Source of the DNA: a virus
Taxonomy: Duplodnaviria; Heunggongvirae; Uroviricota; Caudoviricetes
Reading direction: 5' to 3' (one strand)
DNA: 4,577 nucleotides
Virus record (IMG/VR): IMGVR_UViG_2734482555_000008
Every line of letters begins with the position of its first letter. Position 1 is the first letter of the stretch. Positions 1-3,700 of this stretch are shown in pieces. Below the pieces are notes generated by a model. The model saw only the letters and a program-made list of their open reading frames with translations, was not told where the DNA came from and did no database searches. The translations under genes and the position numbers were made by a program.

Positions 1-161
1 GCTTTGAACTCTTTAGAGTAACGTTGGGTTTTTCTGCTCATTATTAGCTCCTTCTGATGCCATTCTATTTCAGGAAGGAGTGTCCGTTAAACTCAGGCTA
101 CCTCAGGTTATTCGCTTCTGGGCATGGGCGGATCAACAAATGATAGACGGTAATGCAGATT

Positions 162-180
162 GTAACGCTCGCGGCGTTAC
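162..180. repeat. Inverted repeat GTAACGC-N5-GCGTTAC
   Basis: GTAACGC at 162..168 and GCGTTAC at 174..180, read directly. Lies inside the N-terminal coding part of the O-like gene. Confidence 0.6.
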
Positions 181-370
181 AAAAAGTGCAATAGATCGCA
201 TCACTTTTATGTCTGGTTTTGCTGATGCGTTAATTCAGGTTGGATGGCTGGTCGAAAATGACGGAGGGCTTTCTCTACCTAACTTTGAACGTCATAACGG
301 AAAAAGCTCTAAAAAAAACGGGCGGTTACAAACGAGCGAGTAACAAAAATACGCGAACTGAAACGAAAAG

Positions 371-389
371 GTAACGCTGCCAGCGTTAC
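371..389. repeat. Near-perfect palindrome GTAACGCTG-C-CAGCGTTAC
   Basis: 9 bp arms at 371..379 and 381..389, read directly. The same heptamer core recurs at 406..412 (GCGTTAC) and 18..23 (GTAACG), with degenerate copies at 323..329 and 338..344. Confidence 0.6.
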
Positions 390-414
390 ACAAACGGATC
401 AAAAAGCGTTACCA

Positions 415-432
415 GAGGAAGAGGAAGAGGAA
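415..432 (+). repeat. Tandem hexamer (GAGGAA)x3 encoding an acidic tract
   Basis: Three perfect GAGGAA copies at 415..432. Encodes the EEEEEE run in the linker of the O-like gene. Confidence 0.8.
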
Positions 433-788
433 GATCTAAATACTGATCTCCCCCTCGCCAAAAACGAGCGTCTAAAAAATTCGAGCCGGAGGCTATTGAG
501 CTGCCCGATTGGTTGCCGGAAACACTCTGGCATGAGTGGGTCCGGTTCAGACAGGCATTGCGAAAACCGATTCGAACGGAGCAGGGCGCTAACGGGGCGA
601 TACGGGAACTGGAAAAATTCCGTCAGCAGGGTTTTACACCTGAGCAGGTGATTCGACACAGCATCGCCAATGAATACCAGGGCCTGTTCGCGCCGAAAGG
701 TGTTCGGCCTGAGACGTTGCTCCGACAGGTTAACACCGTCTCGTTGCCGGACAGTGCGATCCCGCCAGGCTTCAGGGGGTAACGGACC

Positions 789-1574
789 ATGAAAAATATT
801 GCGACAGGCGGCGTTCTGGAACGCATCCGCCGACTGACCCCGCCACATGTAACCGCCCCATTCAGAACGGTAGCGGAGTGGCGCGAGTGGCAACTTGCTG
901 AAGGCCAGAAACGTAGCGAGGAGATCAACCGCCTGAATCGCCAGTTGCGGGTGGAAAAAATTCTGAATCGCTCAGGCATCCAGCCGTTGCACCGTAAATG
1001 CTCGTTTGCGAATTACCAGGTGCAGAACGACGGCCAGCGATACGCGTTAAGCCAGGCGAAATCCATCGCCGATGAACTGATGACCGGGTGTACAAATTTT
1101 GCGTTCAGCGGAAAACCTGGTACCGGGAAGAATCACTTAGCGGCAGCTATCGGGAATCGCCTGCTGAAAGACGGTCAGACAGTGATTGTGGTTACCGTGG
1201 CTGATGTTATGAGCGCCNNNNNNNNNNNNNNNNNNNNNNNNNNNNNNNNNNNNNNNNNNNNNNNNNNNNNNNNNNNNNNNNNNNNNNNNNNNNNNNNNNN
1301 NNNNNNNNNNNNNNNNNNNNNNNNNNNNNNNNNNNNNNNNNNNNNNNNNNNNNNNNNNNNNNNNNNNNNNNNNNNNNNNNNNNNNNNNNNNNNNNNNNNN
1401 NNNNNNNNNNNNNNNNNNNNNNNNNNNNNNNNNNNNNNNNNNNNNNNNNNNNNNNNNNNNNNNNNNNNNNNNNNNNNNNNNNNNNNNNNNNNNNNNNNNN
1501 NNNNNNNNNNNNNNNNNNAGTTTCAGGAGGATTTATGGCGAAACCTTTTACTCCCGAACAGCGGGAAGAACTGA
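789..1574 (+). CDS. DnaC/P-like replicative helicase loader (AAA+ ATPase), prophage replication protein
   Basis: ATG at 789 with AGGGGG about 10 nt upstream. The visible 143 aa include Walker A FSGKPGTGKNHLAAAIG and the DnaC-like N-terminal region (NRSGI..CSF.NY). The middle and C-terminus are hidden by N-block 1218..1518. The end at 1574 is only the first stop in frame if the N-block length is exact, and it would overlap the next gene by 40 nt, so the 3' end is uncertain. Confidence 0.85.
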   Translation: MKNIATGGVLERIRRLTPPHVTAPFRTVAEWREWQLAEGQKRSEEINRLNRQLRVEKILNRSGIQPLHRKCSFANYQVQNDGQRYALSQAKSIADELMTGCTNFAFSGKPGTGKNHLAAAIGNRLLKDGQTVIVVTVADVMSAXXXXXXXXXXXXXXXXXXXXXXXXXXXXXXXXXXXXXXXXXXXXXXXXXXXXXXXXXXXXXXXXXXXXXXXXXXXXXXXXXXXXXXXXXXXXXXXXXXXXXFQEDLWRNLLLPNSGKN

Positions 1575-3256: not shown

Positions 3257-3700
3257 GACTGCGGGTGCTTGAGGCTATCTGCTTCAGGCATGAACACCAA
3301 AAGGCAGATAGAGAAAAGCCCCAGTTAACATTACGCGTCCGGCAAGACGCTTNNNNNNNNNNNNNNNNNNNNNNNNNNNNNNNNNNNNNNNNNNNNNNNN
3401 NNNNNNNNNNNNNNNNNNNNNNNNNNNNNNNNNNNNNNNNNNNNNNNNNNNNNNNNNNNNNNNNNNNNNNNNNNNNNNNNNNNNNNNNNNNNNNNNNNNN
3501 NNNNNNNNNNNNNNNNNNNNNNNNNNNNNNNNNNNNNNNNNNNNNNNNNNNNNNNNNNNNNNNNNNNNNNNNNNNNNNNNNNNNNNNNNNNNNNNNNNNN
3601 NNNNNNNNNNNNNNNNNNNNNNNNNNNNNNNNNNNNNNNNNNNNNNNNNNNNNNNNNNNNNNNNNNNNNNNNNNNNCATCCTCAACGCACCCGCACTTAA

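Follow-up and report, generated by a model that had tools for sequence, protein, structure and literature searches.

The 4577-bp window, i.e., the whole stretch of viral DNA analyzed here, is the replication region of a Rac-like lambdoid prophage and carries, within what is left of an initiator gene, a family of GTAACGC/GCGTTAC sites and an adjoining polypurine tract that together form a candidate replication origin. Its genes are ordered as the initiator remnant, ydaV (partly N-masked), a DUF977/Ren-like gene, a zinc-ribbon open reading frame (ORF), queH, a masked stretch and a DUF1367 gene. The features on which the following analysis depends are, in window coordinates:

1–105, minus strand: left end of an insertion sequence (IS) of the IS3 family, positions 1–109 being 99% identical to Stx2a phage records.
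105–782, plus strand: remnant of a YdaU-like initiator gene, a pseudogene of the phrog_2509 type and not of the K-12 Rac DUF1376 type, delimited by alignment with loci L001 and L002.
150–180, no strand: N-domain site cluster, made of GTAATGC (150–156) and the palindrome at 162–180, encoding the surface loop DGNADCNARGVT.
296–370, plus strand: A-rich and purine-rich DNA separating the two clusters (73% purine, 60% A+T), which includes the frameshifted A-run.
371–412, no strand: linker site cluster, made of the palindrome at 371–389 and the terminal half-site GCGTTAC at 406–412.
414–434, plus strand: polypurine tract AGAGGAAGAGGAAGAGGAAGA, immediately past the terminal half-site; candidate unwinding element.
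789–1535, plus strand: ydaV, the DnaC-like helicase-loader gene and partner of the initiator, annotated as ydaV or ATP-binding protein in matching genomes; its 3′ end is approximate because 1218–1518 is N-masked.

The heptamer occurs six times in the window against 0.39 expected, a count of at least six being reached in none of 200 dinucleotide shuffles, and five of the six copies lie within 162–412. An initial annotation, made from the letters of this stretch, had reported two inverted-repeat pairs and a half-site here. Both pairs are real and perfect 19-bp palindromes, GTAACGCTCGCGGCGTTAC at 162–180 (GTAACGC-TCGCG-GCGTTAC) and GTAACGCTGCCAGCGTTAC at 371–389 (GTAACGC-TGCCA-GCGTTAC), with the same 5-bp spacer (GTAACGC-N5-GCGTTAC), and the half-site at 406–412 is an exact GCGTTAC whose start lies 23 bp past that of the preceding half-site. 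The polypurine tract follows after one base, as a run of 21 nt composed of purines only. Starting 12 bp ahead of the first palindrome, GTAATGC (150–156) departs from the heptamer by one mismatch, most relatives having an exact GTAACGC at this place, and the half-site starts of this cluster are spaced 12 bp throughout. A further copy, placed by the initial annotation at 18–23 just upstream of the gene, does not belong to the family: GTAACG is there followed by T, falls in the codons Q-R-Y of the minus-strand IS transposase gene orfA, is without counterpart in relatives, and is attributable to chance. The single GTAACGC at 2322–2328, in the zinc-ribbon ORF, has an equivalent copy in L001, L003 and L004 and is also probably due to chance, since it lacks a partner half-site. 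The second of the two N-masked stretches of the window (3353–3676) corresponds to the hokD toxin region (L001 7352–7507), and a scan of the window detected no tRNA and no Rfam family.

The positions of these sites are conserved well beyond the enteric prophages. Searching by protein similarity gave 27 genome loci from Enterobacterales, Planctomycetota, Saccharibacteria, Ignavibacteriae and Gallionella; the comparative set comprises 187 non-identical related loci, and the lattice statistics refer to the 172 non-identical loci with a GTAACGC heptamer. Among the 27 loci the heptamers fall at +148/+160/+172 and at about +337 to +426 from the start codon, many loci having additional non-coding copies at −56 to −20, and the N-domain cluster is arranged as > > < at +148/+160/+172, or as > < at +148/+160, in nearly all relatives. 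The initial annotation had proposed to search the motif across the phage and its relatives, and this reveals a density of 10.2 heptamers per kb between −100 and +460 of the gene start versus 0.13 per kb in the 200 kb of flanking DNA, i.e., a roughly 80-fold local enrichment. Similarly, 8 of the 12 copies in a complete 38.7-kb Rac-like phage lie inside 434 bp. The association also holds in the reverse direction: when viral contigs were searched with the exact 19-bp palindrome alone, 67 of the 80 recovered were found to code for this N-domain and to have the palindrome at its canonical offsets, with protein identity falling as low as 35%.

Within the clusters the sites form a lattice. Start-to-start distances of adjacent heptamers are 12 bp (n = 448), 11 bp (n = 59), 22–24 bp (n = 116) and 33 bp (n = 34), with 323 inverted (><) and 107 direct (>>) arrangements, and the mean number of copies is 2.5 in the N-domain cluster and 3.0 (range 2–6) in the linker cluster. 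The remark in the initial annotation that the sites are not a tight array therefore does not extend to the relatives, where they sit on a tight 11–12 bp lattice in two or three clusters. Both intragenic clusters are nearly universal, and an upstream cluster of at least two copies is present in 56 of the 172 loci (about a third). In intact loci this upstream site is a third perfect palindrome, GTAACGCTGCGAGCGTTAC, located in non-coding DNA 13–32 bp ahead of the start codon; it is absent from the window because the IS removed the region.

Several lines of evidence indicate that it is the DNA that is being conserved. Translation of the intragenic palindromes gives [G/S/C]-N-A-x-[S/G]-V-T, and, in the loci collected by protein similarity, the asparagine of this motif peptide is encoded by AAC in 122 of 122 cases versus 57% elsewhere in the same genes, and the valine by GTT in 121 of 122 versus 38%. 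The motif serine is AGC or AGT, as the heptamer demands, and the flanking codons are free to vary. In addition, the terminal half-site is translated in another frame, as K-A-L-P, and the copies upstream of the gene lie in non-coding DNA. As synonymous codons are fixed, the constraint acts on the DNA and not on the protein. According to the predicted structure described below, the site-encoded loop and the disordered linker are the segments that tolerate such an imposed sequence.

The heptamer also changes in a concerted manner. It is GTAACGC in 175 of the 187 non-identical loci, and variant lineages have instead CTAACG (five loci), GTCACG (one), GTCACA (two) or GTGACGC/GCGTAAC (one), the variant being found in both intragenic clusters at the same positions and the direct-repeat copies switching along with the palindromes. 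The TGTCAC/GTCACA class stands on two loci, since no relatives of the divergent L028 protein turned up when viral contigs were searched with this one protein. In the CTAACG lineages L021, L234, L235 and L246 the last half-site, by the polypurine tract, is often still GCGTTACC, and the terminal half-site may be under separate constraint.

What lies downstream is more variable: the next gene codes for a DnaC/IstB-like loader in the window, L017 and L020, a DnaB helicase in L022 and L027, and a lambda-P-type loader in L013. The N-domain alone is co-inherited with the sites, and both the downstream gene and the C-terminal domain vary, which suggests that N-domain and sites behave as one exchangeable module. 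From this co-inheritance, the concerted switches and a winged-helix-like predicted fold, we infer that the initiator's own N-domain is what binds the sites.

The intact 262-aa homologue of L001, WP_038340159.1 at 3898–4686, matches phrog_2509 ‘replication initiation protein’ (1.2e-89, profile positions 1–262 of 277), and its C-terminal half also matches phrog_6451 ‘primosomal protein’ and phrog_678 ‘replication initiation O-like’. For the intact window-type initiator no Pfam or NCBIfam family was detected beyond a faint DnaT-like C-terminal tail. Related proteins amount to 1,205 and 3,085 clusters at 90% identity for two queries, are mostly metagenomic, and differ in their C-terminal domain between enteric and metagenomic members. 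The ydaV homologue of L001 matches phrog_50 ‘DnaC-like helicase loader’ (1e-82). An AlphaFold2 model built with 97 sequences consists of a helical N-domain that includes a beta-hairpin and is predicted with confidence (residues 1–100), a disordered linker (123–159) and a helical C-domain. The N-domain is predicted to be winged-helix-like, on fold evidence that is generic. The loop encoded by the N-domain sites (residues 47–60) has a pLDDT of 61–71 versus more than 90 for the flanking helices, and the linker cluster encodes the disordered linker (pLDDT < 50).

Two variations on this scheme were observed. In a common form of the initiator, P0011–P0058 (376–380 aa, from E. coli and Salmonella), the linker is interrupted immediately past the polypurine tract by an insertion of about 114 aa (GRIDIVVTDRNG...IELD...), which lacks a Pfam match and might represent an added domain or a mobile element lying at the putative origin. 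Also, initiator and sites at the canonical offsets occur in two circular records labeled as plasmids, L280 (CP088505.1, the 52-kb E. coli pE16EC1016-8) and L281 (NC_015459.1, a 41-kb plasmid of Pusillimonas sp. T7-7), which may be phage-plasmids or circularised phage genomes.

In 132 of 155 loci the last half-site is followed, at a distance of 0–2 nt, by a tract of at least 90% purine with a median length of 27 nt, which stays purine at the DNA level as the encoded peptide shifts from EEEEEE to EKRREE (peptides were taken from annotated proteins). In the intact locus it coincides with a local minimum of duplex stability (+410 to +440). The initial annotation had located the second pair in the linker-coding region beside a purine-rich tract, in agreement with the disorder of the modeled linker and with the tract at 414–434. 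On the minus strand, the linker palindrome (L001 4265–4283, equivalent to window 371–389) is followed by CTTTTCGTTT and scores as intrinsic-terminator-like, a result that may follow from the A-richness of the coding strand.

Conserved positions, constraint at the DNA level, concerted change of the copies and the helicase or helicase-loader gene downstream together make it probable, on comparative sequence evidence, that the heptamers are initiator-binding half-sites which, with the polypurine tract, constitute a lambda-like intragenic origin. The same evidence gives strong comparative support to the suggestion of the initial annotation that the repeats are initiator-binding sites of a lambda-like origin, from which several details have to be subtracted, among them the copy at 18–23, a chance match, and the intactness of the gene, which in the window is a pseudogene. 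In the mechanism that we propose, initiator dimers would bind the 19-bp palindromes, and extra subunits would occupy the flanking half-sites with an 11–12 bp repeat. The linker cluster would thus carry a nucleoprotein complex, the N-domain cluster about 200 bp upstream and, if present, the upstream cluster having an auxiliary role, and this complex would strain or melt the abutting purine-rich tract. The C-terminal domain would then recruit the helicase via the partner encoded downstream, i.e., DnaC-like YdaV here and a lambda-P-type loader or a phage DnaB elsewhere. The upstream non-coding palindrome, by the ribosome-binding site, may provide autoregulation too.

Some results weigh against this interpretation. 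The clusters show no conserved helical phasing, the distances between them (189, 198–200, 207–210, 216–219, 228 and 240–246) fitting no one period. At 57–60% A+T the purine tract dips no deeper in stability than several other 30-bp windows of the locus, and hence an unwinding element is not clearly singled out. The P-values of the codon test are inflated by kinship of the sequences, although the pattern holds across phyla of differing base composition. No sequence similarity was detected between the initiator and lambda O (best BLASTP E = 1.5). Finally, the one experimentally known Rac origin, oriJ, does not validate the site family, since the N-domain of the K-12 protein is of a different type; the literature searched contained passing mentions of oriJ and no base-level mapping, and the sole coordinates found are those of a quantitative PCR (qPCR) amplicon, whose position is within ydaV of K-12 rather than ydaU.

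The sites might alternatively be operators only, through which the initiator or another phage regulator represses or roadblocks the replication operon, with the origin elsewhere. This is the role that the palindrome of intact loci, in the non-coding gap just ahead of the initiator Shine-Dalgarno sequence, would suggest by itself; autoregulatory inverted repeats are classic for iteron-plasmid Rep proteins, and the published oriJ qPCR primers do fall in ydaV. However, about 60% of the loci lack the upstream site, whereas the intragenic clusters are nearly universal, and neither a conserved polypurine tract nor three to six phased half-sites deep in the coding region, at the place of the lambda iterons, would be expected of operators. 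A consensus scan of L001 3100–4800, which is a weak test, also gave no sigma-70-like promoter near the upstream site. We therefore regard a purely regulatory function as unlikely. Somewhat less likely still is a different binder, e.g., a host factor, the CII-like YdaT or the DUF977/Ren-like winged-helix protein, acting for a purpose unrelated to initiator recognition. Several DNA-binding proteins are indeed coded nearby in the E. coli version, but the sites persist across phyla although the neighbors and the C-domain vary, the N-domain being the sole constant. A single host factor specific for one 7-mer across Enterobacterales, Planctomycetota and Saccharibacteria is hard to envisage, and lineage-specific concerted switches fit a binder encoded at the locus.

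Each palindrome can also form a 7-bp stem with a 5-nt loop, raising the question of RNA hairpins or cruciforms that govern translation, processing or termination. The terminator-like score of the minus-strand linker palindrome with its T-run points in this direction, as does the fact that variant lineages alter both arms together and keep the pairing. Nevertheless, about a quarter of neighboring pairs are direct (>> at 12 bp, n = 107; << at 11–23 bp) and, like the lone half-sites, unable to pair; all hairpins of a locus share one sequence, the direct repeats switch too, pairing is never kept via changes private to a single hairpin, and no Rfam match was obtained, making a structural role improbable. 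Least credible of all is that the motif is a by-product of a needed repeated peptide, NAxSVT, or of chance. Both window palindromes do lie in the same frame of the intact gene, coding xNAxxVT, but a protein requirement would account neither for the fixed synonymous positions nor for non-coding upstream copies and a terminal half-site in another frame, and the motif peptides map to a low-confidence loop and a disordered linker. Chance is ruled out by the shuffles and the local enrichment.

Taken further, binding of the initiator to sites in its own gene would define an undescribed class of phage origin present over several bacterial phyla, with a Pfam-less winged-helix initiator, sites in its own coding sequence, unwinding at a GA tract, and at least five specificities reached by concerted change. 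We hold this broader proposal, built on sequence comparison, to be evenly balanced. A literature search combining the heptamer with ‘iteron’ returned nothing relevant, and no description of the site family was found.

The window itself holds a damaged copy of this arrangement. The start codon of IS orfA is at window position 41 on the minus strand (41 to 1 translating to MSRKTQRYSKEFK), the matching locus L031 codes for a 100-aa HTH_Tnp_1 protein (OrfA) and a 272-aa rve protein (OrfB), and the IS terminus TGAGGTAGCC, with terminal TGAGG, ends at 105. Precisely there, at about codon 36, begins the homology to intact ydaU-type genes (alignment with the 262-aa genes of L001 and L002), the IS having taken the place of the upstream palindrome and of approximately the first 35 codons (about 100 bp) of the initiator gene. 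The remnant is split into three frame pieces (107–343, 319–450 and 450–782) by two lesions, A8 for A6 (+2 A) in the A-run at 311–318 and a 10-bp deletion at 448/449 between TCCCCCT direct repeats, which may be real or, as this is one sequence, homopolymer or assembly errors. The initiator gene that the initial annotation assigned to 80–343 is consequently no gene: GTG-80 lies inside the IS terminus, and the ORF is a chimera of the IS end and the truncated gene, with homology starting only at 105 and two frameshifts along the remnant. The window element is thus a relic in which the intragenic sites and the tract are intact, the upstream site and gene start are replaced, and the remainder is frameshifted twice. 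As its gene is a pseudogene, this copy is unable to fire with its own initiator, and could do so only given an intact initiator of the same specificity, putatively from a co-resident prophage.

If the origin interpretation is true, sequence alone places the origin for a large, almost wholly unannotated initiator family in thousands of uncultured phages, one that also covers the common Rac-like prophages of E. coli, Shigella, Salmonella, Klebsiella, Yersinia and Serratia. It would likewise extend the lambda principle, i.e., an origin in the initiator gene with exchangeable N-domain and sites, to an unrelated initiator fold family, and offer a natural system for the co-evolution of a protein and its embedded binding sites. 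The overlap of constraints is a clear one, in that the gene of a DNA-binding protein spells its own putative sites and thereby fixes codons and a peptide motif. For annotation, this accounts for the conserved ‘NAxSVT’ and ‘ALPEEEEE’ in otherwise variable, disordered segments, and flags relic origins that a co-resident prophage might activate in trans.

Lambdoid phages have their origin midway along gene O, with O-binding iterons and an A+T-rich tract as its components (PMC7466680). In the lambda record, four 18-bp iterons occupy +349 to +433 of O, and duplex stability in the region is lowest in the A-rich purine stretch that comes after them. The element described here resembles ori-lambda (lambda and the Stx phages P27/933W) in the location of its sites in the linker-coding part of the initiator gene (+367 to +408 in an intact relative), in the use of repeated sites of about 18–19 bp with dyad symmetry, in the purine-rich tract, a local stability minimum, that comes next on the coding strand, and in a helicase loader as the next gene, N-domain and sites seeming in both cases to form an exchangeable specificity module. 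In contrast to the four tandem 18-bp iterons of lambda, it is built from 7-mer half-sites, direct and inverted, on an 11–12 bp lattice, has extra clusters in the region coding for the DNA-binding domain and also, in about one locus out of three, ahead of the gene, and adjoins a GA-rich tract of 57–60% A+T versus 77% in lambda. Given that no similarity to lambda O was found beyond the ‘O-like’ C-terminal PHROG, the element is an analogue and not a member of the O/ori-lambda lineage.

The iteron plasmids (pPS10, P1, F, R6K) provide a second comparison, as their Rep/RepA proteins are winged-helix initiators that recognize the same short sequence as direct and as inverted repeats, an inverted repeat upstream of rep serving autoregulation. 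Both arrangements are found here, and the upstream palindrome abuts the ribosome-binding site. Unlike in those plasmids, the sites are within coding sequence and have a period of 11–12 bp versus about 22 bp, and the protein, which also has a distinct C-terminal domain, is partnered by a loader or helicase gene.

A third comparison is with the ydaU-ydaV region of the K-12 Rac prophage, which shares the operon organization (cro-like, cII-like ydaT, ydaU, ydaV), a C-domain with 81% identity that begins at residue 139, and repeats in the linker-coding region at about +350 to +470. However, the K-12 N-domain is DUF1376 (residues 22–104) and is unrelated, profile comparison aligning the C-domain only, and its repeat is not GTAACGC but TGTTCAAACA, in five direct and inverted copies at +353 to +469 (L279 2972–3088). 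Since the homology with K-12 starts at residue 139, immediately past the purine tract, the recombination boundary coincides with the end of the site array.

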